This document shows, piece after piece, positions 979 to 60,704 of a DNA stretch of 64,000 nt. Below the pieces are notes generated by a model. That model was given only the letters and a program-made list of their open reading frames with translations, did not search any database and was not told the origin of the DNA. Every line of letters begins with the position of its first letter. Position 1 is the stretch's first letter. The translations under genes were made by a program, and so were the position numbers. The stretch is from an uncultured bacterium (lineage in GTDB: Bacteria; Armatimonadota; Abditibacteriia; Abditibacteriales; Abditibacteriaceae): contig CAWJLW010000006.1 of the NCBI GenBank assembly GCA_963843795.1, forward strand, positions 3,360,375-3,424,374, read 5' to 3'.

Positions 979-1022
979 TGCGCCACATCATCCTGCAAGT
1001 ACTTGCAGGATGATGTGGCGCA
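979..1022. repeat. Perfect 44-bp palindrome centred on TGCAAGTACTTGCA
   Basis: TGCGCCACATCATCCTGCAAGT|ACTTGCAGGATGATGTGGCGCA, ending 10 nt before the dprA ATG. Confidence 0.95.
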
Positions 1023-1032
1023 GTGAATTATC

Positions 1033-2292
1033 ATGGCAACGGCTTCCCGACAATTCGATGACAGCGACGCGATGCAGCTCGCGTGGCTGCGTTTGTCTTT
1101 CGTCGCTCTGCCTGCCGGACGTTGCCGTCGCGTGCTGGAGCGTTGGGAAACGCCGCTCGATTTGTTGCAGGCCGCTCACCGCGGATACGAAGCCGAATTG
1201 CTCGAAACTCAAGGATTAACACCGCGCACCGTTGACTTGCTGCGCCAGAACGCGGCGCGCGACCTGACGCCCGCTTTGCAGGCCATCGAAAAAAATCAAT
1301 TGTGGCTGCTTCTGGATTCGCACGAAGATTATCCCGCTGCCCTGCGCGCCATTCCCGACCCACCGCTTTATCTGTGGATGCGCGGCGAAATCGGTCGCGC
1401 CGATGATATGGGCATCGCTATCGTCGGCACGCGCGGCCCCACCGAATACGGCAAAGGCATGGCAATCAAGTTCGCTGGCGATCTGGCGCGGCGCGGTCTG
1501 ACAGTGATTTCGGGTCTAGCTCGCGGCATCGATACCGCCGCACACAAAGGCGCGCTCGCTGCAGGTGGTCGCACGCTCGCGTGTTGCGGCTGCGGTTTGG
1601 ACATCGCGTATCCCAAAGAAAATCGTGGGCTCATGGACGAAGTCTGCGAAAATGGCGCGTGTATCTCCGAATTTGCGCCGACGGTGCATCCCGAACCGTG
1701 GCACTTTCCCGCCCGCAATCGCATCATCAGTGGCCTCAGTCTGGGCACACTCGTCGTCGAGGCTGCACTGCGTTCGGGCGCTTTGCTGACTGCCAACAGC
1801 GCGCTTGAGCAAGGACGTGAAGTTTTCGCGGTTCCGGGCAACGTGCTGAAATCGCAAAGTCGCGGGCCGCACGGATTGATTAAACAAGGCGCCGCGTTGG
1901 TGGAAAACGCCGAAGACATTGTAGAGATTTTGCAGTCGCGCACGTTGCCCTTCGACCGCGATGTGGCACTGGTTTTGAACGAGGTGGGCGACGAGAGCGC
2001 ACAGGAAGAAAGGGAACCCAAAACCAACTTGCAAGTATTTGAGGCGTCCTCAACGACGCCAAAACAGAAACCTCTCGACGCTTCCGCTGCGATTTCCCAG
2101 CGTGTGCGCGCCGATTTGAACGAAACCGAAAATCGCGTTTACAGTCAACTGGAACTTGATGGCCGTCACATGGACGACATCGCGCTGGCTGCTGGAATGA
2201 GTGCAGGTGAAGCGAGCGCAACTTTGTTGATGCTGGAATTAAAACAGTTGGCGCGACGCCTGCCAGGCGGCTTTTTCGAGCGCCTCTCTTGA
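1033..2292 (+). CDS. dprA: DNA-processing protein DprA
   Basis: IAIVGTR, ISGLARGIDTAAH, FPARNRIISGLS and GREVFAVPG motifs, C-terminal winged helix, upstream of topA. Confidence 0.96.
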   Translation: MATASRQFDDSDAMQLAWLRLSFVALPAGRCRRVLERWETPLDLLQAAHRGYEAELLETQGLTPRTVDLLRQNAARDLTPALQAIEKNQLWLLLDSHEDYPAALRAIPDPPLYLWMRGEIGRADDMGIAIVGTRGPTEYGKGMAIKFAGDLARRGLTVISGLARGIDTAAHKGALAAGGRTLACCGCGLDIAYPKENRGLMDEVCENGACISEFAPTVHPEPWHFPARNRIISGLSLGTLVVEAALRSGALLTANSALEQGREVFAVPGNVLKSQSRGPHGLIKQGAALVENAEDIVEILQSRTLPFDRDVALVLNEVGDESAQEEREPKTNLQVFEASSTTPKQKPLDASAAISQRVRADLNETENRVYSQLELDGRHMDDIALAAGMSAGEASATLLMLELKQLARRLPGGFFERLS

Positions 2293-2401
2293 AACTATTC
2301 TGCAATCGACTTGCAACCCTGCGCCCAAACAGCGAAAATACGCGCCGCAAGTACTTGCAAGCACTTGTAGCGACTTGAATTGAAAATTTACAATTACGAC
2401 C

Positions 2402-4771
2402 ATGGCTAAATCTCTATTAATCGTCGAATCTCCGACGAAAGTGAAAACTTTGAAATCGTTTTTAGGCCCCGATTTCACGATCATGGGTTCGCAGGGTCAC
2501 GTCCGCGACCTGCCCAAAAGCGGCCTTTCCGTAGACATCGAACACGATTTCAAACCCGAATACGAACTCCTCGAAGATCGCGGTCATATCATTGACGCCA
2601 TGCGCAAAGCCGCGCGTAACGCCGATCATATTTATCTCGCGTCCGACCCCGACCGTGAAGGCGAAGCCATCGCGTGGCACATTCGCGAAGCCTTGAATTT
2701 GAAAAAAGTGCATCGCATCCAGTTCAACGAAATCACTAAAACCGCCGTGCAACGCGCGATTGACAGTCCCGGCGAAATTAATATGGATCGCGTCAACGCT
2801 CAGCAAGCGCGCCGCGTGCTCGACCGCATCATCGGCTACAAAGTTTCGCCATTGCTGGCACGCAAAATCGTGCGCGGCTTGTCTGCTGGCCGCGTGCAAT
2901 CGGTCGCGGTGCGTTTAGTTTGCGACCGCGAACGCGAAATTCAAGCCTTTAAAATTGAAGAATACTGGAGCGTCACCGCGCTCGTTTCGCCGCAAGACAA
3001 AGATTTTCCGTTTCCCGCAAAATTGTTGACACGCGAAAACAAAAAGCTCGAAATTCACAACGAAGACGAAGCGATGGAACTCGTTGAAGCGCTACGTCCG
3101 CTGCCTTATATTGTGAAAGACGTAAAGCGCCGCGAGAAAAAACGCAACGCGCCCGCGCCGTTCATCACCAGCACTTTGCAGCAAGAAGCCAGCAAGCAAT
3201 TAGGTTTTTCTGCCAAACGAACCATGATTGTCGCGCAGCAACTTTACGAAGGCATCGCGCTTGGCGGCAGCGAAAGCGTTGGCTTGATTACCTATATGCG
3301 CACCGACTCAACTGCCATTGCCAAGGAAGCGCAGGAAAAAGCGCGCGAAGTAATTACCGAGCGTTTCGGCGCGGAATTTCTGCCCGACAAGCCGCCGGTG
3401 TTCAAAAATCGCAAAAGTGCACAAGAAGCGCACGAAGCGATTCGGCCTTCTTATATCGACCGCATTCCCGAAGAAATCGAAGGTTACCTCGAGCGTGATC
3501 AATTCCGTTTGTATCGCTTGATCTGGCGTCGGTTTGTCGCCTCGCAGATGAAACCCGCTGTCATGGATGTGACAACGGTTGATATCGCGGCGGGCGAATT
3601 TGGTTTGCGCGCCAGCGGTTCAATTATCAAATTTGCCGGTTTCCTGAGCGTTTATCAGGAAGCGCGTGACGAAGACGCTGCCGAAGAAAGCGCCGATGAC
3701 GAAAACAACGAGCGCACCTTGCCGGAATTGCATAACGACCAAGCACTTGATTTGAAAGAATTGCTGCCCAAGCAACATTTCACGCAACCGCCGCCGCGCT
3801 ATACCGAAGCGACTTTGGTGAAAGCGCTGGAAGAAAACGGCATTGGTCGGCCTTCAACTTATGCACAAACGATGTCCACGATTCAAGATCGCGGTTATGT
3901 TGAGCAAGAGCAGCGTCGCTTTTCACCCACGGAACTTGGCTTTTTGGTGAATGATAAATTGATGCAGCATTTTCCAGATGTGGTCGATGTGCAGTTCACA
4001 GCAGGCGTCGAAGCCAAATTGGATGATGTGGAAGAAGGCAAGCAGAATTGGGTCGATTTATTGAAAGAATGGTATGAGCCGTTCTCCAAAGAATTGGCTT
4101 TGGCCAAAACCGAAATGGAAAAAGTCGGGCCGGTGGAAACCGATTTCGATTGTCCGAATTGTGGCAAGAAAATGGTTTTGAAGCGCGGACGTTTTGGTAA
4201 CTTCTTATCGTGCTCGGATTATCCCGAATGTAAAACTTCAATGGATATCGACGCCGAAGGCAATCCGGCGCCGCGCGAGGAAAAAGTCGCGCCGGTTATT
4301 GAAGGCATCGACCCCGAAGCCACGCGCGATTGCGAAAAATGCGGCAAACCCATGGCCGTGCGCACTTCGCGCATGGGCGTTTTCTGGGGCTGCACCGGCT
4401 ACCCGAAATGCAAAAACCTCATTCCCATTGAAGGCGCCAAAGTGCAAGGCCAAACCGCGCCACCGGTCGAATTGACCGATCACGCGTGTCCGAATTGCGG
4501 CAAACCATTGGCTTTGCGAAAGGGTCGTTTCGGCCCATTCTTAGGTTGCAGCGGTTATCCCGATTGCAAAACAATTGTCAAGTTGGACAAAGATGGCAAT
4601 CCGCGTATGGATACAGCGACCGCGCCTGATGGCAAACGCCCTGATGCTCCAGCTAAAGCAACGGCGAAAAAGACGACCAAGAAAGCACCTGCGAAGAAGA
4701 AAACGACGGCCAAAAAACCGGCTGCCAAAAAAGCGCCTGCCAAAAAGGAAGTTGTAGAAGTCGGAGCCTGA
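2402..4771 (+). CDS. topA: Type IA DNA topoisomerase I
   Basis: LIVESPTK and SDPDREGEAI (TOPRIM), SAGRVQS, active site LITYMRTDS, GIGRPSTY, three C4 zinc ribbons, Lys/Ala-rich tail. Confidence 0.98.
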   Translation: MAKSLLIVESPTKVKTLKSFLGPDFTIMGSQGHVRDLPKSGLSVDIEHDFKPEYELLEDRGHIIDAMRKAARNADHIYLASDPDREGEAIAWHIREALNLKKVHRIQFNEITKTAVQRAIDSPGEINMDRVNAQQARRVLDRIIGYKVSPLLARKIVRGLSAGRVQSVAVRLVCDREREIQAFKIEEYWSVTALVSPQDKDFPFPAKLLTRENKKLEIHNEDEAMELVEALRPLPYIVKDVKRREKKRNAPAPFITSTLQQEASKQLGFSAKRTMIVAQQLYEGIALGGSESVGLITYMRTDSTAIAKEAQEKAREVITERFGAEFLPDKPPVFKNRKSAQEAHEAIRPSYIDRIPEEIEGYLERDQFRLYRLIWRRFVASQMKPAVMDVTTVDIAAGEFGLRASGSIIKFAGFLSVYQEARDEDAAEESADDENNERTLPELHNDQALDLKELLPKQHFTQPPPRYTEATLVKALEENGIGRPSTYAQTMSTIQDRGYVEQEQRRFSPTELGFLVNDKLMQHFPDVVDVQFTAGVEAKLDDVEEGKQNWVDLLKEWYEPFSKELALAKTEMEKVGPVETDFDCPNCGKKMVLKRGRFGNFLSCSDYPECKTSMDIDAEGNPAPREEKVAPVIEGIDPEATRDCEKCGKPMAVRTSRMGVFWGCTGYPKCKNLIPIEGAKVQGQTAPPVELTDHACPNCGKPLALRKGRFGPFLGCSGYPDCKTIVKLDKDGNPRMDTATAPDGKRPDAPAKATAKKTTKKAPAKKKTTAKKPAAKKAPAKKEVVEVGA

Positions 4772-4783
4772 CTGTTGTTTTGA

Positions 4784-4817
4784 AAATCGGCCCTGCAAGT
4801 ACTTGCAGGGCCGATTT
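4784..4817. terminator. 34-bp perfect palindrome (motif-centred) after topA
   Basis: AAATCGGCCCTGCAAGT|ACTTGCAGGGCCGATTT, 12 nt after the stop codon. Confidence 0.6.
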
Positions 4818-4847
4818 CGTGTCTGATATTCAACATTTCACTCAATT

Positions 4848-5612
4848 ATGATTCGTTTGGGCGTAGTTTCTTATCTCAATTCGCTGCCATTATGGAAGCC
4901 GTTACAAGGGCGCGACGATATCGAAATTGTGCGCGCGGTGCCGTCAAAGCTGCAAGGTTTGCTGGATGCGGGCGAAGTCGATGCAGCGCTCCTGCCGATT
5001 GTCGATCACTTCCGACACGGCGGCCATCTGGTTTCCGATGCGTGCATTGGTGCCGAGGGCGCGGTGCGCTCGGTGCTTTTGTTGTCGCAAAAACCTTTGG
5101 CCGAAATTGAAAGCGTCGCCGCCGATACCAGTTCGCATTCTTCGGTCGCCCTGACGCGCGTTTTGTTACAAGACGCAATTGGCATCGCGCCGCCGTTTTT
5201 CGATTTTAAGCCCGATTTGCCCGCAATGTGGCAGGAACACGACGCCGCGCTGATTATCGGCGATGCCGCGCTCGAAGCGGTGCAAAAAGGTTTGCCCAAA
5301 AACGCTGTCGTGTGGGATTATGGCGCGGCGTGGCAGGAATTAACCGGCTTACCGTTCGTCTTTGCTGCGTGGATCGCGCGCGACAATTTGTCGCAAAACC
5401 AATTGGATGAACTGAGCGTTTTGCTTTCGAGTGCGCGCGACGTGGGCGAAACACGAATTCCGCAATTAGCGCGCGAAGCCAATCATCAGACGCTTCCGAC
5501 CGCACTTATCGAAAGCTATCTCAGCGATGCAATCGGTTACCACATCACCCCCAAACACCAAGAGGCAATTAACGAATTTCGCGCGCGTTGCGCCAAATAT
5601 CATTTGATTTAA
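4848..5612 (+). CDS. mqnA: Chorismate dehydratase, futalosine menaquinone pathway
   Basis: IRLGVVSYLNSLPL, GAVRSVLL, SHSSVAL, ALIIGDAAL, WQELTGLPFVFAAW. Confidence 0.9.
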   Translation: MIRLGVVSYLNSLPLWKPLQGRDDIEIVRAVPSKLQGLLDAGEVDAALLPIVDHFRHGGHLVSDACIGAEGAVRSVLLLSQKPLAEIESVAADTSSHSSVALTRVLLQDAIGIAPPFFDFKPDLPAMWQEHDAALIIGDAALEAVQKGLPKNAVVWDYGAAWQELTGLPFVFAAWIARDNLSQNQLDELSVLLSSARDVGETRIPQLAREANHQTLPTALIESYLSDAIGYHITPKHQEAINEFRARCAKYHLI

Positions 5613-5614
5613 GC

Positions 5615-5650
5615 GAAAAGCACGCTGCAAGTACTTGCAGCGTGCTTTTC
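5615..5650. terminator. 36-bp perfect palindrome, likely bidirectional terminator
   Basis: GAAAAGCACGCTGCAAGT|ACTTGCAGCGTGCTTTTC between convergent genes. Confidence 0.7.
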
Positions 5651-6476
5651 ATTTTTCCCACGCCATCCAATGCGGATGCTTATCCAGTCGCATTTGCATA
5701 TCGCGCCACGCATCTAAACTCGCGCGCAAATTCGCGTATGCATCGCCGCCGATGCCGTAACCTTGAAAGCCGACCGACCCTTGATAATCGATTTCGCGCA
5801 GCAAGGCCGCGATGGAAAAATTGTCCAATTCGCCACGATCTAAAGTTTCAATTGTGCAATCGCGCTGATTATTTTGAACCTTGGCGGTGCTGCCGTTCAA
5901 ATTCACCGCGCGCAAAAGCGGCGCGGCATCTTTCAATAATTTCGGTAAATCGTGCAGATTTTGATTGGGCAAAGCGAACCAGTGATAAGCGCAAAACACG
6001 ACGCCTAAACGTGGCTGCAGGAAGTTGCGGGCAACTTGTAACGCCGTTTCCAAACGGTCGAGCCAGAAACCGATGTGCGGATAAAGCGCAATTTGTAAAT
6101 CGTTTTCATCCGCTGCCCGTAAAATCGACTGAAGCCATTTTTCCAGACGCGCATCGTTGGTCGAAAACGCTTCTGCGCCCACAATTGCCAATTCGATACG
6201 CGTGTTGGCAGGCATGGTTTTCATCGCTTCGAGAAAGCGATGGTTCGCGCCTCCGCGATCATCCAAATCTAAAGTCCAGTAAACGCCGGAAACCTGAATG
6301 CCGAAATCGCGAAAGACGTGCTTGATTTTCGGCAAATCTTCCCACGCTTCTTCGCTCCACAAAGTGAGATAAGTGCCATCGTAACCCAATTGGTGCAATA
6401 TTTCGCAACGCGCTTCCCAACGGTAAACACCCAGAGAATTGTAAAAGTAGGTGTCCATCGCGTAAACGGAATTCAT
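5649..6476 (-). CDS. Sugar phosphate isomerase/epimerase (xylose isomerase-like TIM barrel)
   Basis: IALYPH, GVVFCAYHW, LDRGELD and YQGSVG motifs; GGAGGA RBS before the ATG at 6476. Confidence 0.7.
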   Translation of the reverse strand: MNSVYAMDTYFYNSLGVYRWEARCEILHQLGYDGTYLTLWSEEAWEDLPKIKHVFRDFGIQVSGVYWTLDLDDRGGANHRFLEAMKTMPANTRIELAIVGAEAFSTNDARLEKWLQSILRAADENDLQIALYPHIGFWLDRLETALQVARNFLQPRLGVVFCAYHWFALPNQNLHDLPKLLKDAAPLLRAVNLNGSTAKVQNNQRDCTIETLDRGELDNFSIAALLREIDYQGSVGFQGYGIGGDAYANLRASLDAWRDMQMRLDKHPHWMAWEK

Positions 6477-6504
6477 GTTTTCCTCCTGCAAGTACTTGCA
6501 GCGC

Positions 6505-9246: not shown

Positions 9247-9307
9247 AGATAAGCCTTCTGACAAAGATGGCTTGCAGTGTGCAACTATCGCCAATAATCG
9301 GCAAACA

Positions 9308-9341: not shown

Positions 9342-9367
9342 GCGCATGTCGCTTTCGTGTCCGACGC

Positions 9368-11167: not shown

Positions 11168-11178
11168 TTTTGGCAAGC

Positions 11179-11212
11179 AAAAGCGCGCTGCAAGTACTTG
11201 CAGCGCGCTTTT
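11179..11212. terminator. 34-bp perfect palindrome, likely bidirectional terminator
   Basis: AAAAGCGCGCTGCAAGT|ACTTGCAGCGCGCTTTT plus a T tract, between convergent genes. Confidence 0.72.
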
Positions 11213-11853: not shown

Positions 11854-13129
11854 TCAATACAGCAAGTAACTTGCGCCGCCAATTCGCGAAATTATCGCGC
11901 CCTTTGTTCCAGCGCGCCCACAACTGCGCGCCACTTTCGCCCTTCAGAAACGCTCGCCGTATGTCCGAAGTGCCGCATACCAGATCGAACATTTTAGTTT
12001 TGGCACTGTTAGGAAACCATTTCTCAGAAGCAAAACGTTGGCCGTCGATTTTACGCAGCGCATCCATCAATTCGAAATTCACGCGAGTGAGTTGCGCGCG
12101 TTGCACATCGGTCACGATAACCTGCACGCCCTGACAATTTCGGCCCGCGTAGGTGCCGCTTTTCGGCGTCCATTGCGCGGCGCGAAATTCGATGCCCACA
12201 ACTTTGCGCCGCGCCAATTCCTGTTCCAAACGCCGCGCATCGAGACTGGGCGCACCCGCAACTTGAAACTGATATGGCGTTCCGATGCCAATCGACAGCA
12301 GCGAAAGTTCGCCCACAATTCCCGTCGCCGCGTAATAAAATGGGCTTTCCGAACGCGGAATATTCGGACTGGTCGGAATCCATGGCAAACCGGTGTCGTT
12401 CCACGTCATTGTGCGCTTGTAACCGCGCAATTTAACGACTTTCAAATCGCACGAAATTTTGCCCGGCAAGTATCTGCGCGCATTGATTAAAGTCGCCACT
12501 TCGCCCATCGTCAAACCGTGACAATAAGCAATCGGATACGGCGACACAAACGACAAATAAGAATATTGCGCCGAAGATCCTTCGACACGATTGCCGCCAA
12601 TCGGATTGGGCCTGTCTAAAACGACAAGCGTTTTTTTATCGCGTGCGCACGCCGCCATCACTTCGCCGAGGGTGGAAATGTAAGTGTAAGAGCGCGAGCC
12701 GATGTCCTGCATATCGAAGACCAAAATATCCAACGTTTTCATTACCGCTGCGCTGGGTCGTTTACTGGAACCGTAAAGCGAATAAATCGGCAGGTTGGTT
12801 TGGGCATCGCGCCCATTTTTCACGGTCGCGCCCGCCGTGGCCGTGCCGCGCAAACCGTGTTCGGGGCCAAAAAGCGCCACTAATTTGCAATTTTTGGCGC
12901 GATAGAGAATGTCGATAGTCGAAGTTCCATCGCGCGCAATGCCGGTCTGATTGGTGACAAGTCCGACGCGCTTGCCGCGCAAGATGGCGAAATCGTCGTC
13001 GCGTAACACATCAATGCCGGGCGTAACAGAGTTTTGTGCACGCGCCGGAATTTGGCATTGTGGCGCTGCAAGTACTTGCAGCGCGATGAGGAAAAAAGTG
13101 CAGATTAAGGAAAACTGTTTCAGTTGCAT
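11854..13129 (-). CDS. DUF1343 / NamZ-family exo-beta-N-acetylmuramidase, with an apparent 1-nt insertion near the 3' end
   Basis: VGLVTNQTG, LFGPEHG, FDMQDIGSRSYTY, LDRPNP, HGLTMGE, WIPTSPN. The family-like end RKYLLY* is restored by deleting one A at 11868/11869. Confidence 0.88.
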
Positions 13130-19359: not shown

Positions 19360-22254
19360 ATGCGCAATTTATTCTCGCTGCTTTGTTTGTGCTTGCTTAT
19401 CACGACCGCGCGCGCGCAGAACCCTGGCGCTTACGAAAGCAATTTTGCGCAGCTCGATGCGAAAACTTTCGCTAAGAATTGGGAAATTTCCGACATCGGT
19501 TGGCAATTAATACAGAAAAACGGTGGGCAAGTACTTGCAGCGGATGTTCCGCACGGACGCGGCGTGGCGCTGTGGCAACCCGAACCGCAACTGTGGCTGC
19601 GCGATGGTGTGTGGGAAAGCACGCTCACGCCGTTGCGTTCGCACGGCGCAGATTCGCAATGGAAAACTGTCGGCATCGGTTTGTGGATTGATGAGCGCAA
19701 TTTCTGGCAATTATCGCTGGTTGAAGCGCCCAAAACGGGCCAAACCGCACCCTTTGTCGAGTTGTCGCAGATGCGCGATGGACAATGGAACGCGCAAAGC
19801 AATGACGCAACCAAGCGTCCGGTTTTGGAAGCTTCGCCGCCGTTGGCGTGGCAATATGGCGAAACGTATCGTTTGCGCTTGAGCGCGCAAGGCTCGCCTT
19901 ATGGCGGCGCGCGCAGCTTGCTGGGTGAAGTGTGGCAAGGACAAAAGCGCGTCTGGCACATCAACTACGCGCTGGAACCAGTCGAGCGCGCCGATATTAT
20001 GAGTGTGAATATCGGGCGTCCGGTTCTCACAGCAAGCGGACTTGTCACCGACTTTTCGCGCGCCGTTTTGAGCGATGTGCATACGGCAGCGCCGCCAGAT
20101 GAACCGATTGTGCCGCCCTATCAAGGCGCGGTGATTTCGGGCGCGAGTAAAATGCAAAATGCGACGGGATTTTTTGGTGTGGAGCAGCGCGAGAATCGTT
20201 GGTGGCTGCGCGACCCCAACGGCGCGCTAACGCTTTCGATTGGCACCGATCACGTCAATTACGATGTGCATTTCAGCGAAATTTTGGGCTACGCGCCCTA
20301 TGCGCGCAACGCTCGTCAAAAATATCCTGATGAAGATGCGTGGGCCAACAATGCCGCTACGCGCTTGAAAAATTGGGGCTTCACGACACTGGGCGGCAAC
20401 AGCAGCGCGAGCGTGCGCTATCGCGGCTTGGCGCATTTCGACAATTTGCAAATGGGCGCCAGTTTCGCCGATACCGCGACCTTAGTCGAAAAAACCTGGT
20501 GGACGGGTTTTCCCGATGTGTTCGATGCGCGCTGGGCGCAGCACTGCGATTTGCGTGCGCGCCAATTGTGCGAATCGCAACGCGATAATCCATGGCTGGT
20601 CGGCTATTATCTGGACAACGAACTCGAATGGCTGGGCAAAAGCTGGCAGCCACAAGGCATCGTTCTGGACATCATTCAACGCGCGCCCGATAGCGCGGGC
20701 AAAATCGCCTTAGGACAAATCTGGCGCGATTATTATCAGAACAATGTGACCGATTTCAATCAGGATTTCAGCAGCAATTTGGCTGCGTTTGATAATTTCC
20801 CCGCTTTAAAAACTCTCCAATTGCCACAAAACGCACGCGGCAAAATTGCCATTGATAAATATTTGGATGAAATGGCGCGGCGTTATTTTTCGGTAGCCAC
20901 CGCAGCGATTCGGCGTTACGACCCGAATCACTTGATTTGCGGCAGCCGTTTCGCGGGCAGCGCGCCCGCAGCCGCGTGGATTTGGGCGGGCAAAACCTGC
21001 GATGTGGTGAGCTTCAATTTGTATCCGCGCATCGACTTTACGCGCGGCGAAGTCGTCGATTTGAACGCGACCATTCAGCGCAATTATCAGCTCACACAGA
21101 AACCGATGATGCTGACCGAATGGAGTTTTCCCGCATTGGATGCCGTAGATTCGCAAGGCACGCCGATTCCCTCGCAACACGGCGCGGGTATGCGCGTCGA
21201 TACGCAGGCGCAAAAGGCACAAGCGTTTGCGATGATGCAGGAAGCGCTGTTGCGCTCGCCGTATATTGTCGGCTCACATTATTTCATGTGGGCCGACGAA
21301 CCAGCCAGCGGCATCAGCAAAAGTTTTCCCGAAGATTCCAATTACGGATTGGTCGATGAAAACGACCGCGCTTATCCCGCGCTCACAAAAGCCGCGACGC
21401 AAGTGAATCAGCGCGCGCGACAACTGCATCTCGAAGGCCCACGAAAATCAACGACATCGGCGCGCGTGGCCACTGCGCCATTGCAGGTACTTGCAGGCGC
21501 GATTATCCATTATCAGCAGAAAAATAATGCTGATTTCACGCTCGATAACGGCGTTTTGCATCTGCAAAGCGATAGTAAGACGCTGCAAGTGCTTGCGGGC
21601 GGCAAATCGCCAATCGAATTGGGAAGTTATGCGCCATTGGTGCAATGGCAACGCGGCACGGAAGTGCATTGGGAGCGCGCGCAGAAATTGGATGCGATAA
21701 ACATCATCGAAAACAACGCACGCCGCATCGTGATGGACACGACTTGGAGCGCGCCACTCAATCAAGGTGTTCCCGCGTGGCGCGCGCTTGTGCGTTTGAC
21801 AATGGACGCGGGCGTGCCATATTTTCGCGCGCAATTGCGTTGGATAGAAAACACGTCGGCGCAAGCGTGGCAAAGCATGGGATATTTTCACGCGACGCCC
21901 TCACAAATCGGCGGCGACGGCAGCGATGATACATTGGGCACGCCGAATGCGCCCAATTACTGGCTCGAAGTCGGCGCATGGACGGACAAAAGCGGCTGGC
22001 AATTCGGCCAATTGCCATTACGCTCCGACAAGCGTTTCAGCGTGAATTTCTGGCTCGACAACGGCGCGCAACATCCCGATGCTTTTCGTCGCTTTCAAGA
22101 TGCTGCGGGCGAAAACCAACCGCGCAGTTTCGCGCCCGGCGAGCGTTGGAACGCGCCGAATGATGAACCGGTTTCGCTGATATTTGGCTTGCATTCTACG
22201 CCACAAAATCAGCGTCCGTGGACGAATTTGGCGCTGCATCGACCGGAAAAGTGA
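19360..22254 (+). CDS. Secreted multidomain glycoside hydrolase (GH50/GH42 agarase-like core)
   Basis: ATGFFGVEQRENRWWLRDPNG, RLKNWGFTTLG, VGYYLDNEL, DPNHLICGSRF, MLTEWSF, HYFMWADEP...NYGLVD. Confidence 0.72.
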   Translation: MRNLFSLLCLCLLITTARAQNPGAYESNFAQLDAKTFAKNWEISDIGWQLIQKNGGQVLAADVPHGRGVALWQPEPQLWLRDGVWESTLTPLRSHGADSQWKTVGIGLWIDERNFWQLSLVEAPKTGQTAPFVELSQMRDGQWNAQSNDATKRPVLEASPPLAWQYGETYRLRLSAQGSPYGGARSLLGEVWQGQKRVWHINYALEPVERADIMSVNIGRPVLTASGLVTDFSRAVLSDVHTAAPPDEPIVPPYQGAVISGASKMQNATGFFGVEQRENRWWLRDPNGALTLSIGTDHVNYDVHFSEILGYAPYARNARQKYPDEDAWANNAATRLKNWGFTTLGGNSSASVRYRGLAHFDNLQMGASFADTATLVEKTWWTGFPDVFDARWAQHCDLRARQLCESQRDNPWLVGYYLDNELEWLGKSWQPQGIVLDIIQRAPDSAGKIALGQIWRDYYQNNVTDFNQDFSSNLAAFDNFPALKTLQLPQNARGKIAIDKYLDEMARRYFSVATAAIRRYDPNHLICGSRFAGSAPAAAWIWAGKTCDVVSFNLYPRIDFTRGEVVDLNATIQRNYQLTQKPMMLTEWSFPALDAVDSQGTPIPSQHGAGMRVDTQAQKAQAFAMMQEALLRSPYIVGSHYFMWADEPASGISKSFPEDSNYGLVDENDRAYPALTKAATQVNQRARQLHLEGPRKSTTSARVATAPLQVLAGAIIHYQQKNNADFTLDNGVLHLQSDSKTLQVLAGGKSPIELGSYAPLVQWQRGTEVHWERAQKLDAINIIENNARRIVMDTTWSAPLNQGVPAWRALVRLTMDAGVPYFRAQLRWIENTSAQAWQSMGYFHATPSQIGGDGSDDTLGTPNAPNYWLEVGAWTDKSGWQFGQLPLRSDKRFSVNFWLDNGAQHPDAFRRFQDAAGENQPRSFAPGERWNAPNDEPVSLIFGLHSTPQNQRPWTNLALHRPEK

Positions 22255-22300
22255 AACGCAAAAAGGCGCTGCAAGTACTTGCAGCGCCTTTTTGCGTTTC
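22253..22300. terminator. 48-bp perfect palindrome, likely bidirectional terminator
   Basis: GAAACGCAAAAAGGCGCTGCAAGT|ACTTGCAGCGCCTTTTTGCGTTTC between convergent genes. Confidence 0.75.
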
Positions 22301-25110: not shown

Positions 25111-25160
25111 CAAAAAGCGCGCTGCAAGTGCTTGCGCAAGTACTTGCAGCGCGCTTTTTG
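25111..25160. terminator. Tandem double-core palindrome between convergent genes
   Basis: CAAAAAGCGCGCT-GCAAGTGCTTGC-GCAAGTACTTGC-AGCGCGCTTTTTG. Confidence 0.7.
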
Positions 25161-32442: not shown

Positions 32443-32483
32443 AAATACGCGCTGCAAGTACTTGCAGCACACAATTATCAACT

Positions 32484-32517
32484 AAAAGCGCCTTGCAAGT
32501 ACTTGCAAGGCGCTTTT
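32484..32517. terminator. 34-bp perfect palindrome between the CSLREA paralogs
   Basis: AAAAGCGCCTTGCAAGT|ACTTGCAAGGCGCTTTT; a second core lies at 32453-32466. Confidence 0.6.
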
Positions 32518-37927: not shown

Positions 37928-38050
37928 AATTTTCCCTTCCGTTTTCGTGCTGCAAGTACTTGCAGCGCGTTTAAATTATAGCGCGAACAGCTAACAGACA
38001 CGCAAAAACGCCCCTGCAAGTACTTGCAGGGGCGTTCGATTGTAAAAACG

Positions 38051-42926: not shown

Positions 42927-42966
42927 GCGAAAGGCGCACTGCAAGTACTTGCAGTGCGCCTTTCGC
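42927..42966. terminator. 40-bp perfect palindrome (motif-centred)
   Basis: GCGAAAGGCGCACTGCAAGT|ACTTGCAGTGCGCCTTTCGC, downstream of the HEAT-repeat gene. Confidence 0.62.
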
Positions 42967-52215: not shown

Positions 52216-52231
52216 TCTCAAATACTCCCAC

Positions 52232-53296: not shown

Positions 53297-53311
53297 ATAA
53301 GTATTGAAATT

Positions 53312-54964: not shown

Positions 54965-55098
54965 AAAAGAAAAAAGATTAAATACGACAATTTTAAATAC
55001 GACAAAATGCCCTGCAAGTACTTGCAGGGCTGTTTGAGCCGTCAAAACGCAAACGGCACGGTTGCGCGAAATGCGCAACCGTGCCGGAAGAAAGAAAC

Positions 55099-55827
55099 TT
55101 ATTTGCCGTAGACTTCGATTTCGGTGTAGCGATTCTCGTCGCCACCAGTCGAGCCATTCGAGTAGAAGCGCACATAGCGACCTTTAACAGCTTTGACCGG
55201 CATCAGTCTACCTTCGGCGAGTTCAAAGTATTCGCGGTCGGTGCCTTTGCCCAATCCCGAACTGTTGTCCTGATCGTTGTTGAACACGGTTTTCACGCCT
55301 TCAACGAAATCTTTGTCGTCGGAAATCTGCACCACGACATCGCGGTAAACGTTGGCCACGGTGTGATCGTGCCACGAAACAATCGCGTAAATTGTGGCCG
55401 ACTTGCCCAGATCAATTTGCACCCACTGCTTGCCAAAACCGTATTCGATGAATTTACCATCGGCGGCTTCTTTATCGCCATCGGTAATTAGCGCATCTTC
55501 GCCAATAATGGGCGCGGTGTCGCTGGCCGTGACCGGTTTGCCCAAGGCCAGGTTCGACGTGCCCTTGGGCACATAAAAAGTCGGGCGCGCTTTCCCAGTC
55601 GGTTTTTCAACGCTTGTGCCCGGCGGAATGTTTTTCGGTGTGCCGATAAAAGTCGGCGCCGGCAATTTCAATTTCAACGGCACCATATCGCCAGCAGGTT
55701 TGGTGGCAGGCTTTGCGGCAGGCTTGGCTGGGGCTTTCTTCGCGGGCGCGGCGTACGAAGAAACGCTCCATAATGGAGCAATCGCCAAAGCCGACAAGGT
55801 CAAAATTTTTAAAGATGTTTTTTTCAT
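55099..55827 (-). CDS. Secreted discoidin / F5/8 type C domain protein
   Basis: Signal peptide, NLALGKPVTAS, ITDGD, QWVQIDLG, RYVRFYS, EIEVYG. Confidence 0.85.
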   Translation of the reverse strand: MKKTSLKILTLSALAIAPLWSVSSYAAPAKKAPAKPAAKPATKPAGDMVPLKLKLPAPTFIGTPKNIPPGTSVEKPTGKARPTFYVPKGTSNLALGKPVTASDTAPIIGEDALITDGDKEAADGKFIEYGFGKQWVQIDLGKSATIYAIVSWHDHTVANVYRDVVVQISDDKDFVEGVKTVFNNDQDNSSGLGKGTDREYFELAEGRLMPVKAVKGRYVRFYSNGSTGGDENRYTEIEVYGK

Positions 55828-55977
55828 TTTTTCTCCAATGTAAACGCGGGCTATAATATTTAAACGCTGCTTTTGCCCTTCAGGTTCAAGTTACCTTTGA
55901 GTTAAAGTTATCTTGACATCAGCACTCGACTAAGATGAACGTATAAACCTAAGCTCATAATTGCACAAACCAATGAC

Positions 55978-56039
55978 AAAGCCCGCCGCAGTGAGTTGCA
56001 TCTGCAAATTTGCAGGTGCAAGTACGTGCGGCGGGCTTT
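55978..56039 (-). terminator. Long nested hairpin downstream of tRNA-Pro
   Basis: Outer stem AAAGCCCGCCGCA...TGCGGCGGGCTTT encloses TTGCATCTGCAAA|TTTGCAGGTGCAA. Confidence 0.6.
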
Positions 56040-56058
56040 ATAGTCACACACCGATTAA

Positions 56059-56133
<75 letters not shown>

Positions 56134-56163
56134 ATCTTTAACTTTACAAACAAAGCACACGAT

Positions 56164-56192
56164 ATTATAACGCCAGGTTTCGCGTGCCGCAA
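56164..56192 (-). promoter_or_regulatory. Sigma70-type promoter of tRNA-Pro
   Basis: Minus strand TTGCGG-N17-TATAAT, about 30 nt upstream of the tRNA. Confidence 0.65.
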
Positions 56193-56406
56193 GGTTTCGC
56201 GTGCGCAAGTACTTGCCACACGCTGCGAAGCCCGAATTCTCCGCGAGGAGCATAATTAGCGCGGCCAATCTATACTGACTGGCCAAATACCCAGACCAGA
56301 ACTCGCGCATAACCTGCGTCTTAAAATTCGCCAACCACTTTCTGTTTTCATCTTGAGCAGTTCATTAAAGCCCGTTGCAAGCTCGTTTTGGGAATTTTTC
56401 AGCGAG

Positions 56407-56438
56407 TTATCCACAGGCATGGAAAAGTTTGTGGATAA
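56407..56438. promoter_or_regulatory. Two inverted consensus DnaA boxes upstream of dnaA
   Basis: TTATCCACA at 56407-56415 and TGTGGATAA at 56430-56438. Confidence 0.88.
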
Positions 56439-56525
56439 CTTATTGGTGAATGGGGCATAATTAAAGACGAAGTTTCTATCGTGCGCGCTCATCGTTTCCT
56501 GACGCGTCTTCTTTTTGTTTTCGCC

Positions 56526-58145
56526 ATGAAATCACCCGAACGCCATTCTTTCGCCAATGCCACTGCCGACGCGCAACTTTTGGCGCGCGCTTGGGACGAA
56601 GTTTTGGGCGTGCTACAAACCGAACTCTCCGGCCCCACTTTTAACAATTATCTCCGTCATATTCGTCCGATTGCTTTGCAGGGAGACCGCTACGTTTTGG
56701 AAGTGCCTTCGGAATTCGTCAAAGATTGGCTGGTGCGCCGGTTTTCCGGTCGCATCGAAAGCACGCTCGAACAATTTCTCGGACGCAGCATCGTTCTGGC
56801 TTTCCAAACCGGCTCGCAAGCGCCCGAAAATGCCAACGAACCCCCTTCAGAAACCAACGAAGCTATTGCGCCCGGCGAAATTGGTGCTTCTTTAATTCCT
56901 GCCGAAGAAACGGAAATTGCCAGCCCGCACGAAGCTGAAATCGCACCGCGCCCTTCAACATTATCGTTATTCGAAGGCGAAGGCACACCCGAAGAAAAGC
57001 GCAGTTTGCGTGGCGAAAGTCGCGCGGGCGGCGGTGGCGAAAGCGGCCCCAGCGGGCGTGGACGTGCGCGCGCTGTGCGCGATGTCAGCGATTTGGAAGA
57101 CTTTTCCAGCTCGCCACTCAACAAAAAATACACCTTCGATAACTTTATCGTTGGACGCAGCAACTATGTGTCGCACGCTGCGTCGTGGGCCGTTGCTAAT
57201 GCACCAGCCAAAGGTCAATACAATCCACTTTTTATTTACGGTGGGGTGGGTTTGGGCAAAACGCATTTGATGCAGGCGATTGGCCATCACATCAATTTGC
57301 AGCGCCAAAGTCCTGCAGAAATTGTCTATGTTTCGGGTGAAAATTTCCTGTATCAAGTGGTGCGCTGCATCCGCGAAGATCGTATGACGGCGTTCAGAAG
57401 AATGTATCGCAACGTGGATATTTGGCTGGTTGACGACATCCAATACATCTGCAACGCCGAGCGCACAGAAGTCGAGTTTTTCCACATTTTCAACACGTTG
57501 TACGATCAGGGCAAACAAATCGTGATTTGTTCGGACAAGCCACCCAAAGATTTGCAACTCACCGAAAGCCGCTTGATTTCGCGCTTTGAATGGGGTTTGA
57601 TTACTTATATCGAGCCGCCGGATTTGGAGCATCGCATCGCGATTTTGCAAAAACGTGCGATGGCCGAGGGTGTTCATGTCGAGCCTTCGGTTTTGCAATT
57701 TTTGGCCGAAAAAATTCGCTCCAATATTCGCAGTTTGGAAGGTTCATTAACACGACTTCTGGCGATGGCGTCTTTGGATGGCCGCAAAATCAATCTGGAT
57801 TTGGCAGCCGAAACTGTGCGCTACTATTCAACGATGGAATCGGAACCGGTGAAAGTCGAAGTCGATACGATTATTCAAGTGGTGGGCGAACATTTCACGG
57901 TTCCGGTCAGCGATATTTTGGGCAAAAAGCGTAACAAGGAAATTGTGACGCCGCGCCAAATCGCGATGTATCTAGCGCGCGAAATGGCGAGCATGAGCTA
58001 TCCCGATATCGGTCGCGCTTTTGCGCGCGATTACACGACGGTGATTCATTCCTACGAAAAAATCAAAGCCGAAATCAAGCGCGATCCGACGTTGAAAAAC
58101 ACGATTTCCGACATTCGCTCCAAAACTCACGCGCGCTCATCGTAA
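56526..58145 (+). CDS. dnaA: Chromosomal replication initiator DnaA
   Basis: YTFDNFIVG, YNPLFIYGGVGLGKTHL, LVDDIQ, RLISRFEWG, NIRSLEG, RQIAMYL, RDYTTV; long domain II. Confidence 0.97.
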   Translation: MKSPERHSFANATADAQLLARAWDEVLGVLQTELSGPTFNNYLRHIRPIALQGDRYVLEVPSEFVKDWLVRRFSGRIESTLEQFLGRSIVLAFQTGSQAPENANEPPSETNEAIAPGEIGASLIPAEETEIASPHEAEIAPRPSTLSLFEGEGTPEEKRSLRGESRAGGGGESGPSGRGRARAVRDVSDLEDFSSSPLNKKYTFDNFIVGRSNYVSHAASWAVANAPAKGQYNPLFIYGGVGLGKTHLMQAIGHHINLQRQSPAEIVYVSGENFLYQVVRCIREDRMTAFRRMYRNVDIWLVDDIQYICNAERTEVEFFHIFNTLYDQGKQIVICSDKPPKDLQLTESRLISRFEWGLITYIEPPDLEHRIAILQKRAMAEGVHVEPSVLQFLAEKIRSNIRSLEGSLTRLLAMASLDGRKINLDLAAETVRYYSTMESEPVKVEVDTIIQVVGEHFTVPVSDILGKKRNKEIVTPRQIAMYLAREMASMSYPDIGRAFARDYTTVIHSYEKIKAEIKRDPTLKNTISDIRSKTHARSS

Positions 58146-58251
58146 GGCAAGTAAGGCAAAATGCTCTGCAAGTACTTGCAGAATATATATCAGCGCTCAT
58201 CGAGTTGCGATTTCGCAGCTTTTTCAATTTCGAGGAAATTTTAGAATTTTG

Positions 58252-60210
58252 ATGAAGTGTTCATTGCTCTGGCGCCAATCGTTCTATCGCAGTGCTCTGG
58301 CCGTTATAGTGATTTGTGCATTGGCGGGGTGTGGGCCGCAAAAAGCCGAAGTCGTAACTAAGGAAACGGCGCAAACTTCCACAACACCCACACCAGAAAA
58401 TAGTACGATTTCCGAAGCCGAACAAAAAACGCATCCTTTAACGGCAGAAGTTCCGATTGCCCTTGTCGATGCCACTGACGCTTCCGGTATCAAGTTTAAG
58501 CACAACAACGGCGCCTTCGGCTTGAAATTGATGCCGGAAACCAACGGCAGTGGCGTAATTGTTTTCGACTTCGATAACGATGGACGTCAGGATTTGTATT
58601 TTGTGCAGGGCCGAGATTGGACGGATGCGGAATTGAATGAATTCCGCGACAGCAATCTTCAAAGGCATGGCGCGTGGCTGGCTCAGGCGATGAAGAAGCG
58701 TCCCACACCGCGCAAAGCTTTCGGCGCGCTTTATCGCAACAATGGCGATGGCACTTTTCGCGACGTTACCCAAAAAAGCGGCTTGGAAATCGAGATGCTG
58801 GGACAGGGCGGTTGTGCGGGCGATTACGACAACGACGGGCGCGTGGATTTGTATCTCACGTCTCTCAATCGCAATTATCTATTCCGCAACGAGGGAAAAG
58901 GCAAATTTCGTGAGATTTCGGCTCAAGTCGGCTTGCAAAGCATGGGTTGGAGTACTTCAGCGGCGTGGGTCGATTACGACAAGGACGGCTGGCTCGATTT
59001 GTTCGTGTGTCGTTATGTGAAATGGAAGCCGTCGCTTGATGTTTATCAGGAAAGCGCAATTCCCGGCGGCTTCGAAAAAAGTTACAGCGGCCCCAAGGTT
59101 TATCAAGGCCAGTCCAGCCTGCTTTTCAAAAACGAGCGCGGGCGTTTTCGCGATGTCAGCGTTGCGGCGGGCATCGCGAGCCAAAAGCTCAAAAATGGCA
59201 AAATATCGCCGCTGGAGGGCAAAGCTCTGGGCGTTTCCGTATTGGATTGCAACAACGATTTATGGCCCGATTTGGCTGTCGCCAACGACCGTGAGCGCAA
59301 TTTTCTGTTTCAGAACAATGGCGATGGCACTTTCAGCGAAATTGGCGTGCGTTCCGGGTTGGCGTATAACATGAGTGGTTCGGCACGTTCCGGCATGGGC
59401 ATTGATGCGGGCGACATCAACCGGACCAATCGCGATAGCGTAGTAATTGGAAACTTCGACGAAGAAATGATCGGTTTGTATCTCAACGATGGCAGCGGTC
59501 AATTCACTGATGTGGCGAAGGCTTCGGAAGTGGCGCAAGGCAGTTTTAGTTTTCTCACTTTCGGCTGTATGCTCACCGATGTCGATAACGATGGCTGGCT
59601 CGATTTGCTGACCGCGAACGGACATCTCAACCCCGGCATCGACAAAGTGCGGCAAGATGTAACTTACGCCGAACGCCCACTGCTTTTCCGTAGCGAAGGT
59701 ATTTTACCTGAGACCGCGACGACGGTAAAAATGCCATTTTTCCGCGATGTCAGTTTGCGTTCCGGGCCAGGTTTGCAAACGCGCGTGGTCGGGCGCGGAT
59801 TGGCAAGTGCCGATTTCGATCTGGATGGCGATCTAGATTTCATCATTTCTACCAACGGCCATAAACCGCTTTTTTTACGCAACGATACACCACGCGCCAA
59901 CAAAGTCGTTCGGGTGCAGTTAATTGGCAGCAAAAGTAACCGCGATGGAGTTGGCAGCGTTGTGTGGGCCGAATGGGGCGAAGGCACGCGCAAAAAGCGT
60001 TTGCGACGCACGGTGCGAACCGGCACCTCATTCTGCTCTCAAAGTGAACTTCCGCTTACCATTGGTCTGGGCGCTCAAACTCAAGTCGATACGCTGGCTG
60101 TGCGCTGGCCTTCGGGAAAATTATCGAAGTTCCAAAATGTGACAGCAGGCCACAGCGTCACTATTGATGAATCACGCGGCATTATCAAAAATATAACCCT
60201 TACCGACTAA
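58252..60210 (+). CDS. CRTAC1 family (FG-GAP repeats + ASPIC/UnbV) lipoprotein
   Basis: LAGC lipobox, multiple DYDNDG..DL repeats, GRGLASADFDLDGD, SNRDGVG, VRWPSG. Confidence 0.9.
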   Translation: MKCSLLWRQSFYRSALAVIVICALAGCGPQKAEVVTKETAQTSTTPTPENSTISEAEQKTHPLTAEVPIALVDATDASGIKFKHNNGAFGLKLMPETNGSGVIVFDFDNDGRQDLYFVQGRDWTDAELNEFRDSNLQRHGAWLAQAMKKRPTPRKAFGALYRNNGDGTFRDVTQKSGLEIEMLGQGGCAGDYDNDGRVDLYLTSLNRNYLFRNEGKGKFREISAQVGLQSMGWSTSAAWVDYDKDGWLDLFVCRYVKWKPSLDVYQESAIPGGFEKSYSGPKVYQGQSSLLFKNERGRFRDVSVAAGIASQKLKNGKISPLEGKALGVSVLDCNNDLWPDLAVANDRERNFLFQNNGDGTFSEIGVRSGLAYNMSGSARSGMGIDAGDINRTNRDSVVIGNFDEEMIGLYLNDGSGQFTDVAKASEVAQGSFSFLTFGCMLTDVDNDGWLDLLTANGHLNPGIDKVRQDVTYAERPLLFRSEGILPETATTVKMPFFRDVSLRSGPGLQTRVVGRGLASADFDLDGDLDFIISTNGHKPLFLRNDTPRANKVVRVQLIGSKSNRDGVGSVVWAEWGEGTRKKRLRRTVRTGTSFCSQSELPLTIGLGAQTQVDTLAVRWPSGKLSKFQNVTAGHSVTIDESRGIIKNITLTD

Positions 60211-60312
60211 CAACAAGAATATCAGGTATAGGCTGTTGGAAAGCCATCTTTTATGGTTTATAATAATAGATGTATCTCAGTTTTTCCCTATAATTTCAAA
60301 GGAGTCACTTTC

Positions 60313-60534
60313 ATGCGCTCGTTATCGAAAATGAAGTGGTTGGTAGTCGGTGCAATTGCAGTGTTTGCAGCCGGTTGTGGCGGTTCCAAAGAACCGGATT
60401 TGAAACCCAAAGCCAGTAATGTCGATGCTTCCGAAGCTTATGTGAACACGAAGCCCGAAGGCGCAAAAAGCGATGCCGACTATGCGGCCTCGCGACGCAG
60501 TGGATACGCCAACCAGCGCAAAAACAGTCGCTGA
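60313..60534 (+). CDS. Small lipoprotein
   Basis: AAGGAG RBS, hydrophobic signal, FAAGC lipobox. Confidence 0.65.
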   Translation: MRSLSKMKWLVVGAIAVFAAGCGGSKEPDLKPKASNVDASEAYVNTKPEGAKSDADYAASRRSGYANQRKNSR

Positions 60535-60578
60535 ATTGCGACAGCGTTGTGGTCGTTTCCTCCTTTAATAAGTCAATC

Positions 60579-60622
60579 ACTCGAAAGCAGCAGAGAAATG
60601 AATTTCTCTGCTGCTTTCGAGT
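60579..60622. terminator. Perfect 21-bp-stem hairpin
   Basis: ACTCGAAAGCAGCAGAGAAAT-GA-ATTTCTCTGCTGCTTTCGAGT. Confidence 0.65.
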
Positions 60623-60648
60623 CCAAGCTTTTCTTAACAATGAACCCG

Positions 60649-60704
60649 GAAACGTAAAAACGGGCGGCAAGCTTGCAAGTACTTGCCGCCCGTTTTTACG
60701 TTTC
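60649..60704. terminator. 23-bp-stem hairpin enclosing overlapping motif cores
   Basis: GAAACGTAAAAACGGGCGGCAAG-CTTGCAAGTA-CTTGCCGCCCGTTTTTACGTTTC. Confidence 0.68.

Follow-up and report, generated by a model that had tools for sequence, protein, structure and literature searches.

The window analyzed here is a stretch of 64,000 nucleotides from the genome of an uncultured bacterium (G000; 4.30 Mb in 11 contigs, of which C6 is the main one), placed in the Abditibacteriaceae from the titles of the loci holding its closest methyltransferases. Forty-four exact copies of the 12-bp palindrome GCAAGTACTTGC lie in the window, some inside genes and more of them between genes, several forming the centers of terminator-like hairpins. 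An earlier note, made from the window's letters alone, had proposed that this palindrome is a genome-wide signal, pervasive in the manner of the highly iterated palindrome HIP1 or of uptake sequences. The features concerned are as follows, with the strand given for the two genes.

995 to 60686: span of the 44 exact GCAAGTACTTGC copies; the pattern runs on genome-wide
979 to 1022: copy at 995, center of a perfect palindrome extended by 16 bp per side, upstream of dprA
1072 to 2292, plus strand: dprA, transformation recombination mediator (context only)
2347 to 2358: intergenic copy without a hairpin, folding like its shuffles (z -0.7)
4784 to 4817: copy at 4795, terminator-like hairpin (extension 11), 23 bp past the topA stop
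5615 to 5650: copy at 5627, bidirectional terminator-like hairpin between convergent genes, with A-tract and T-tract flanks and a GUAC loop (-27.7 kcal/mol, z -7.6)
11179 to 11212: copy at 11190, bidirectional terminator-like hairpin (-29.6 kcal/mol, z -4.9)
13068 to 53819: 14 in-frame coding copies, at 13068, 13605, 15202, 17113, 19527, 22791, 27169, 40855, 41215, 43564, 44540, 45100, 52834, and 53808, mostly read as x-Q-V-L-A
22253 to 22300: copy at 22271, bidirectional terminator-like hairpin (-39.6 kcal/mol, z -9.9)
25124 to 25147: head-to-tail pair between convergent genes, a near-copy at 25124 (one mismatch) and an exact copy at 25136
32454 to 32506: two copies in a single spacer, 41 bp (about four helical turns) from each other; a hairpin holds the second
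37952 to 38027: two copies in a single spacer, 64 bp (about six helical turns) from each other
42927 to 42966: copy at 42941, hairpin (extension 14)
56526 to 58145, plus strand: dnaA (context only)

Abundance, anatomy, and geometry of the palindrome

None of 100 dinucleotide shuffles of the window held any copy. The earlier note had counted about 44 exact copies, some 30 of them intergenic and 14 coding, and these figures proved exact, the intergenic copies falling between tandem (20), convergent (6), and divergent (4) genes. Its roughly 17 near-copies came down to 14, nine with one mismatch (shuffle mean, 0.16) and five with two; all 11 positions that it listed are real, with 63286 off by one (63285, two mismatches). 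Twenty-three of the 44 exact copies can be extended to TGCAAGTACTTGCA and 20 to CTGCAAGTACTTGCAG.

Throughout G000, GCAAGTACTTGC occurs 2,567 times, compared with 0.45 expected under a fourth-order Markov model; at about 600 copies per Mb, or 1 per 1.6 kb, the signal is genome-wide, as had been proposed. Its density along C6, outside islands, stays between 47 and 83 copies per 100 kb, contig ends excepted, and shows no relation to origin or terminus. Although the window is close to the origin, its 44 copies per 64 kb equal the density of the remaining chromosome. Genes were called with our own hexamer model (3,481 genes, 86% coding), by which about 70% of copies are intergenic, and density reaches 3,057 per Mb in intergenic DNA versus 209 per Mb in coding DNA, a 15-fold difference. 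The claim that most intergenic spacers carry a copy is borne out across the genome (1,582 of the 2,858 spacers of at least 30 bp). Exact copies outnumber one-off and two-off variants by 2,567 to 506 to 371, where simulation gave 2, 11, and 140, and lone half-sites are few, 5,412 of the 5,747 occurrences of AGTACTTG being inside a full CAAGTACTTG. No dense cluster of the kind expected at a cognate gene, with four copies in 260 bp, was present in G000.

Thirty-two gaps of more than 7 kb lack the motif, and gene content was read in 16 of them. The longest hold phage-tail-like, prophage-like, insertion sequence-rich, restriction, and type IV secretion genes, labels that come from reading the sequence, while several shorter gaps hold ordinary genes, the pilM-Q region among them. 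One contiguous phage-tail-like cluster with sheath-, tube-, and baseplate-like genes (C3:2634-27317), motif-free over 32 kb, resembles an extracellular contractile injection system. Also motif-free is the end of the main contig (C6:3590136-3623414), with a GC content of up to 67% and type IV secretion and metal-resistance-like genes, which is either an integrated element or a mis-joined piece. Half of the 48 tRNA and tmRNA genes of G000 (24) have a copy within 100 bp; the window tRNA gene at 56059-56132 is flanked by a near-copy (56018) and an exact copy (56205), and an Rfam scan returned one tRNA and nothing else. Six viral contigs with one 16-mer each, in unrelated contexts, were taken as chance.

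Palindromic extension by at least 5 bp was found at 200 of 290 copies between convergent genes, 365 of 1,236 between tandem genes, 43 of 259 between divergent genes, and 32 of 776 coding copies, and a T-tract accompanies 174 of the 200 extended convergent-spacer copies. About a quarter of the G000 copies are centers of terminator-like hairpins. Three extended sites, when folded, gave hairpins of this type in which the loop is GUAC (z, -4.9 to -9.9); the folds of two sites lacking extension were no better than those of shuffles. Flanking DNA, around coding copies as well, prefers AG at +1/+2, G or C to +6, T at +8 to +11, and A or T near +18 to +22. One-off variants at half-site positions 1 to 6 number 110, 40, 62, 154, 60, and 80.

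The 776 coding copies occupy the three reading frames unequally (508, 149, and 119), and the tetrapeptide QVLA occurs 579 times in G000 proteins, compared with 22 to 128 times for its 23 permutations. Uptake sequences likewise bias proteomes (PMC2817400; here and below, published work is cited for the accessible parts of each source). Codon alignments across G000 coding sites were ungapped in 16 of 19 cases against relative G001 and in 15 of 16 against G009, and GTAC stood in register at 8 of 19 sites in G001, 0 of 8 in G006, and 1 of 11 in G012, with none in the G009 rows listed. Because coding sites align without gaps and some keep GTAC in register, they arose by substitution, and some sites have switched in place from one lineage-specific form of the motif to another.

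Copies are also arranged with respect to one another. Pairs 16 to 120 bp apart are phased at 10.5 bp, with a Rayleigh statistic of 19.7 for exact copies (n = 150) and 27.2 with near-copies included (n = 242), compared with maxima of 9.9 and 9.1 in 1,000 jittered sets. The phasing persists inside single spacers (n = 174; 0 of 500 jitters reached the observed value) and among pairs that involve coding DNA (n = 68, P = 0.002). Of the control words, two fell short of significance (P = 0.06 for GCGCGC and P = 0.78), and five more had too few pairs. Motif counts are under-dispersed, with a variance-to-mean ratio of 0.51 to 0.63 at scales of 2 to 50 kb, and the median distance from a coding copy to the next copy is 618 bp, compared with 515 ± 27 bp after re-placement (n = 656). 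Phasing and under-dispersion together suggest that a symmetric protein acts on duplex DNA and that its benefit would saturate within each fragment; both signals could also owe something to gene structure or to A-tract curvature.

Motif dialects and a restriction-modification pair among relatives

Comparison with relatives (given G numbers here) revealed that the 12-mer itself is nearly species specific, occurring 0 to 3 times per genome in 30 sampled relatives, whereas an AGTAC core is common to related motifs, here called dialects. Counts of AAGTAC and AGTACT divide the 28 genomes of the order, G000 included, into 14 that are nearly purged, 7 intermediate ones, and 7 that iterate. The purged genomes hold 5 to 77 AAGTAC (both strands), compared with 1,331 to 3,913 for the reversed control word. 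Five dialects with the AGTAC core occur across the seven iterating genomes. In G001, the dialect is CAAAGTACTTTG (10-mer core at 592 per Mb in 191 kb); in G009, TCGAGTACTCGA (892 per Mb in 240 kb), with G015 and G038 showing the G009-type motif in short loci and totals of 3,453 and 2,813 AGTACT; in G012, YGAGTACTCR (943 per Mb in 140 kb); and in G006, the 24-bp AGTACGGTCGA-WW-TCGACCGTACT (128 half-sites in 160 kb), which forms a hairpin and lies mostly between genes. In G009 and G012, the dialects are frequent in coding DNA and seldom palindrome-extended. Dialects of Neisseriaceae DNA uptake sequences (DUS) also have a common core (PMC3630211).

Outside the order, none of 235 genomes of the phylum exceeded about 240 AGTACT per Mb. 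The G000 dialect was recovered in 33 metagenome stretches from other species (GC content, 50 to 69%; median identity, 64% over 85 proteins), which carry 104 copies in 268 kb, 33 of them by selection; run X1, whose short contigs over the window may come from the source sample, was left out of this evidence. Three GTAC-purged genomes (G007, G016, and G018) have another repeated word in common, CAGCCACG with extensions (41 in 60 kb of G007).

The orphan methyltransferase that the earlier note had suggested looking for lies elsewhere in the genome. It is a beta-class N6/N4 enzyme of 256 amino acids with a DPPY motif (C6:2517365-2518135), the only one in G000, and no nuclease gene adjoins it. Orthologues occur in 22 of the 28 order genomes, two with internal stops, and in none of 182 genomes of the phylum outside the family. 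A gene of 215 to 240 amino acids adjoins the methyltransferase in G034, G017, and G003 and at four loci labeled Chlorobi or Acidobacteria, and its product matches the PADLOC Type II endonuclease model REase_II (E = 3e-8). An alignment-based structural model of this protein (predicted local distance difference test score, 91.5) matched NhoI (Z 7.4; root mean square deviation 3.4 over 119 aligned residues), MutH (Z 7.0; 4.1 over 147), and DpnI (Z 6.6); the fold matches, PvuII among them, are middling at Z 6.3 to 7.4, and the top 15 rows are all endonucleases. By sequence and modeled fold, the methyltransferase and the adjoining PD-(D/E)xK protein constitute a Type II restriction-modification pair, whose activity is predicted.

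Iteration varies with which of the two enzymes a genome carries. The endonuclease is found in 13 of the 28 genomes, none of which iterates, and it could not be found in G000 even at E = 1. All seven iterators have the methyltransferase, and in none was the endonuclease found. Among the 14 purged genomes, 11 have both enzymes, one has the methyltransferase only (G007), and two have neither (G016 and G019); among the seven intermediate ones, two have both (G017 and G003), one has the methyltransferase only (G004), and four have neither. In the enzyme-free genomes G031, G010, and G037, observed and expected GTAC counts were 41 and 42, 31 and 33, and 25 and 36. These two points, a nearly species-specific 12-mer around a shared AGTAC core and iteration that accompanies endonuclease absence, had escaped the earlier note. 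That iteration occurs only where the methyltransferase is kept and its partner cutter is lacking suggests that a defense mark has been reused as a label of "self" on DNA.

Attempts to name the enzymes failed: the nuclease homologues are unnamed, and the closest named methyltransferases have at most 36% identity. The one strong viral fold match, A7RBT9 (E = 1e-11), is unnamed too; it may be a chlorovirus protein and perhaps a GTAC cutter of the CviQI type. That assumption is not confirmed by the accessible part of PMC7019647. The R.PabI family was absent from all 28 order genomes, in a search in which control genomes were silent as well, and no D12 Dam-like methylase was found in G000, G001, G009, or G005. 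An idea based on Vsr and deamination was dropped after a C5 methylase motif scan of G000 returned no credible match.

Several loci depart from the simple pair. In the GTAC-purged G036 (C336) and G013 (C20), the methyltransferase has internal stops and the endonuclease frame is open; G036 has 3 AGTACT in 4.8 Mb, where the absence of sites may itself protect, or the stops may be assembly errors. In several GTAC-purged genomes (G005, G014, and G033), a gene combining HARE-HTH and Mrr nuclease domains adjoins the methyltransferase. The linked pair at G034:C88 lies in a genome of group g2, but its methyltransferase groups with that of G000 (75% identity, support 86) and not with other g2 enzymes, and this intact pair was likely transferred. 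Armatimonadota families f11 and f34 (for example, G029, G065, G101, and G112) have 0 to 54 AGTACT per genome and lack this methyltransferase, and another GTAC or AGTACT system is likely there.

A proposed self tag and its alternatives

We tentatively favor, at somewhat short of even confidence, the reading that GCAAGTACTTGC is a species-specific self tag of the HIP1 or DNA uptake sequence type, built on a methylation site and raised by biased uptake or recombination after endonuclease loss. The family's Type II methyltransferase and PD-(D/E)xK endonuclease most likely recognize GTAC, which is nearly purged in most genomes with both enzymes. Where the methyltransferase is present without the endonuclease, genomes can carry thousands of GTAC sites, as a correlation shows. 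A sequence-specific protein binding duplex DNA as a symmetric pair would then read 10 to 12 bp around a probably methylated GTAC and favor uptake or recombination of tagged fragments, and point mutations toward the consensus would spread by molecular drive, amino acid changes notwithstanding. Changes in the reader would yield dialects. Copies behind stop codons are extended into intrinsic-terminator hairpins, presumably a secondary use. GTAC methylation, the dimeric reader, and drive by uptake or recombination are all parts that we infer. An uptake or recombination tag is favored by a strict context of four bases to either side of the core, the fixation of amino acid-changing copies, the dialects, and the loss from foreign islands, as biased turnover produces in uptake sequences. 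Among competence and recombination genes, G000 has those for a type IV pilus, ComEA, ComEC, DprA, ComF, ComM, RecA, MutS, and MutL. Campylobacter uptake needs methylated RAATTY (PMC10046745), and methylated HIP1 increases transformation (10.1101/2024.09.10.611283). It is possible, if rather doubtful, that this is a third bacterial lineage with sequence-specific recognition of self DNA, one in which a GTAC restriction site was recycled as the core of a 10- to 12-bp tag for a fast-evolving dimeric receptor.

A number of observations weigh against this reading. GTAC as the enzyme target is itself an inference from sequence: the observed/expected ratio is 0.53 over 80 homologue loci (0.55 at 63 loci labeled Verrucomicrobia, 0.23 at 4 labeled Chlorobi, and 0.20 at 2 labeled Acidobacteria), but the figures from other phyla stand without a matched methyltransferase-free control, one Poribacteria locus is not depleted (42 versus 52 expected), and GTAC is avoided without the methyltransferase in G016, G019, and four other Armatimonadota. 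The link between enzyme state and iteration among the 22 methyltransferase carriers (Fisher P = 2e-4) is overstated by that value, since a quick ComEC tree, in which the G011 row (23% of columns) was disregarded, suggests only some 2 to 4 independent events behind the seven iterators; in the same tree, G017, a carrier of both enzymes in which 101 kb held no motif, falls within the iterators. The lack of the endonuclease is not proven for G001, G038, and G015, whose genomes are 63, 77, and 89% complete, the methyltransferase of G015 has EPPY instead of DPPY, and G004 and G007 have the methyltransferase only, yet show no iteration in 245 and 60 kb. One-off variation within GTAC is no rarer than at positions 2 and 3, so that the core is not specially protected, and helical phasing would fit a chromosome-binding protein equally well.

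On the side of uptake, ComEC is present in all 28 genomes, iterating or not, and competence therefore does not discriminate; ComEA did not separate iterators from non-iterators in the five genomes checked. No reader protein was found. Motif scans of G000 turned up minor pilin genes, none assigned as a ComP or ComN/PpdA receptor, and no ComP profile search was made. Unlike reported uptake sequences, the motif is not enriched in genome-maintenance genes (10 copies in 24 genes versus 8.2 expected, a small sample), and known uptake sequences are not palindromic. The ComEC branches of G000 (1.13) and G006 (1.07) are the longest among full-length sequences, with no rate control.

The same symmetry and phasing would be explained as well as by a tag if the copies were selected sites of an abundant dimeric nucleoid protein, possibly methylation sensitive, with selection acting on chromosomal spacing. 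Such a chromosome role has been argued for HIP1 (PMC5861425). The perfect palindrome, the rarity of half-sites, the 10.5-bp phasing within single spacers together with phased A/T flanks, and a spacing more even than random are all consistent with this explanation, to which we assign an appreciable but minor chance. Against it, the density follows neither origin nor terminus, unlike that of matS, SlmA, and Noc sites. Small basic proteins of G000, mostly ribosomal, offered no candidate, selection would need to prevail over amino acid changes at every one of the 776 coding sites, and the quick change of dialect within a genus would mean rebuilding thousands of sites. An origin as a by-product of methylation-directed repair is improbable, though it too would account for substitution origin: in the ratchet that Elhai proposed for HIP1, a nicking or repair factor at hemimethylated GTAC would keep mutations that complete its context until saturation at about one site per 1 to 2 kb. 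An orphan methyltransferase whose putative site falls within the motif, the presence of MutS and MutL, and an under-dispersed spacing in agreement with saturation near one site per kb (PMC4390886) suit this model, but it adds one base per side of the methylase site, where here four strict bases per side and phased flanks to about +22 are seen. HIP1 one-off variants fall at end positions (PMC4390886), while in G000 variation peaks at position 4 (154) and is lowest at position 2 (40), and the MutH-fold protein of the enzyme pair is the very one that iterators are without.

The 15-fold intergenic enrichment and the hairpins (69% of convergent-spacer copies extended by at least 5 bp, 174 of 200 with a T-tract, and the 24-bp hairpin of G006) might suggest a primary role in RNA, as a standard terminator or RNA-stabilizing GUAC-loop hairpin that spread among spacers. 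We consider this very improbable: 1,956 of the 2,567 copies either lie in genes or show no hairpin extension, the dialects of G009 and G012 often occur in coding sequence and seldom have an extended palindrome, copies lie between ribosomal-protein genes, and helical phasing is a property of duplex DNA. Intergenic bias, tandem duplicates at 10- to 13-bp spacing, and the repetitive extragenic palindrome (REP)-like 24-bp form of G006 would suit a REP or miniature mobile element moved by a RAYT/TnpA transposase, or the target of an Ssn-type nuclease, an account that we find barely credible. Coding copies were substituted and not inserted; a transposase target had been among the mechanisms listed in the earlier note, but the search for RAYT genes found as the sole Y1 transposase of G000 one flanked by a different, GTAG-type REP (16-mer, 14 copies). 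G006 has no Y1 transposase match, and the GIY-YIG proteins of G000 are UvrC and a Cho-like protein, with none of the small type. The Cho-like protein had seemed iterator specific in five genomes and was set aside when found in 23 of 28. The RAYT-like gene (C6:751650-752470) has an apparently broken start and is flanked by its own GTAG-type REP pairs. A library or assembly artifact, which frameshifts, a 289-base poly-A run, and the near absence of the exact 12-mer from sampled relatives might have suggested, has a likelihood close to nil; it is refuted by the bias in reading frame, the terminator anatomy, the lack of copies in islands, the occurrence of homologous sites in a sister species, and the recurrence of this 12-mer in metagenome contigs from other species. 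The earlier note had itself named such an artifact among the outcomes that would undo its proposal.

Relation to known systems

The motif behaves as HIP1 and uptake sequences do in pervasiveness, as had been proposed, and belongs to neither by sequence or host. Like HIP1 (GCGATCGC) and alternate HIPs, it is a short perfect palindrome present at hundreds of copies per Mb, genome-wide and in coding DNA, of substitution origin (PMC4390886, PMC5861425, PMC13756078), and the two have in common an orphan methyltransferase (with its site inside the palindrome for HIP1 and probably so here), lineage-specific alternatives, and proposed roles in transformation or the chromosome. It differs in phylum and sequence, in the extent of its strict context (10 to 12 bases around a core of 4, versus 8 around 6), in its strong intergenic and terminator bias (in G000), in fast dialect change within a genus, and in the existence of sister genomes from which the core is purged and in which the partner endonuclease is present. 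The HIP1 core CGATCG is depleted in G000 (observed/expected, 0.2), which has no D12 Dam-like enzyme and belongs to the Abditibacteriaceae.

With DUS and the uptake signal sequences (USS) of Pasteurellaceae it shares length, dominance of exact copies, core-sharing dialects, and terminator use (PMC3630211, PMC2817400, 10.1101/2025.10.24.684340), as well as reading-frame bias, peptide enrichment, A/T-rich flanks, and competence genes in the host. Those sequences have no symmetry of their own and build terminators from inverted pairs, whereas here a single palindrome is the hairpin center, no receptor was identified, and maintenance genes are not enriched. We know of no methyltransferase link for DUS or USS. 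The CtsM-methylated RAATTY of Campylobacter jejuni is likewise a palindromic methyl mark that discriminates self DNA at uptake (the tag role being proposed here), although it is the 6-base methylase site itself (PMC10046745) and not, as here, a longer strict context with dialects around an inferred site. GTAC restriction-modification systems (HpyAXII/PabI, RsaI, MjaV, and CviQI) share the strong GTAC avoidance in long-term carriers and a methyltransferase that outlasts the nuclease more often; iteration of a GTAC motif after nuclease loss is not described in the accessible part of PMC2588503. The enzymes here differ, being a beta-class DPPY methyltransferase and an unnamed PD-(D/E)xK nuclease. 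A REP/RAYT element is a 20- to 40-bp intergenic unit spread by insertion. REP/RAYT systems and NTS/Ssn systems (PMC11893778 for the latter) also provide hundreds of intergenic palindromic repeats, and the G006 dialect looks REP-like, but the present motif is too short at 12 bp, 30% coding, of substitution origin, and without a flanked cognate nuclease gene. Small GIY-YIG (Ssn) genes were absent from G000, G006, and G012; G009 has two, with 4 motif copies per 3.2-kb locus, near background. With a density flat along C6, the motif is not a parS, matS, SlmA, or Noc type of site, and the earlier note was right to set it apart from HIP1, parS, and matS.

We found no published description of the 12-mer, of palindromic repeats in Abditibacter, or of AGTACT iteration in a search that did not cover subscription journals, and the system is apparently undescribed. 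Why HIP1 and uptake sequences arise is an old question, and the known cases are without close sister genomes in the "before" state. One family here holds genomes that purge GTAC, are neutral to it, or iterate it in five GTAC-cored motifs, and their state follows the half of the restriction-modification system that is present. Comparison within the Abditibacteriaceae therefore makes it possible to test directly whether iterated motifs are seeded by an orphaned methyl mark. It also points to a DNA-binding protein, so far undescribed, whose specificity would shift between species, and predicts a methylation-dependent tag relevant to transforming these bacteria. If the self-tag reading is true, a single family would show the whole path from purged site through orphan methylase and HIP1-like iteration to DUS-like dialects and terminator use. 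The G000 assembly itself carries signs of indel errors, with glutamate synthase in many pieces (C6:2673962-2678744) and the 289-base poly-A run at C6:529517.

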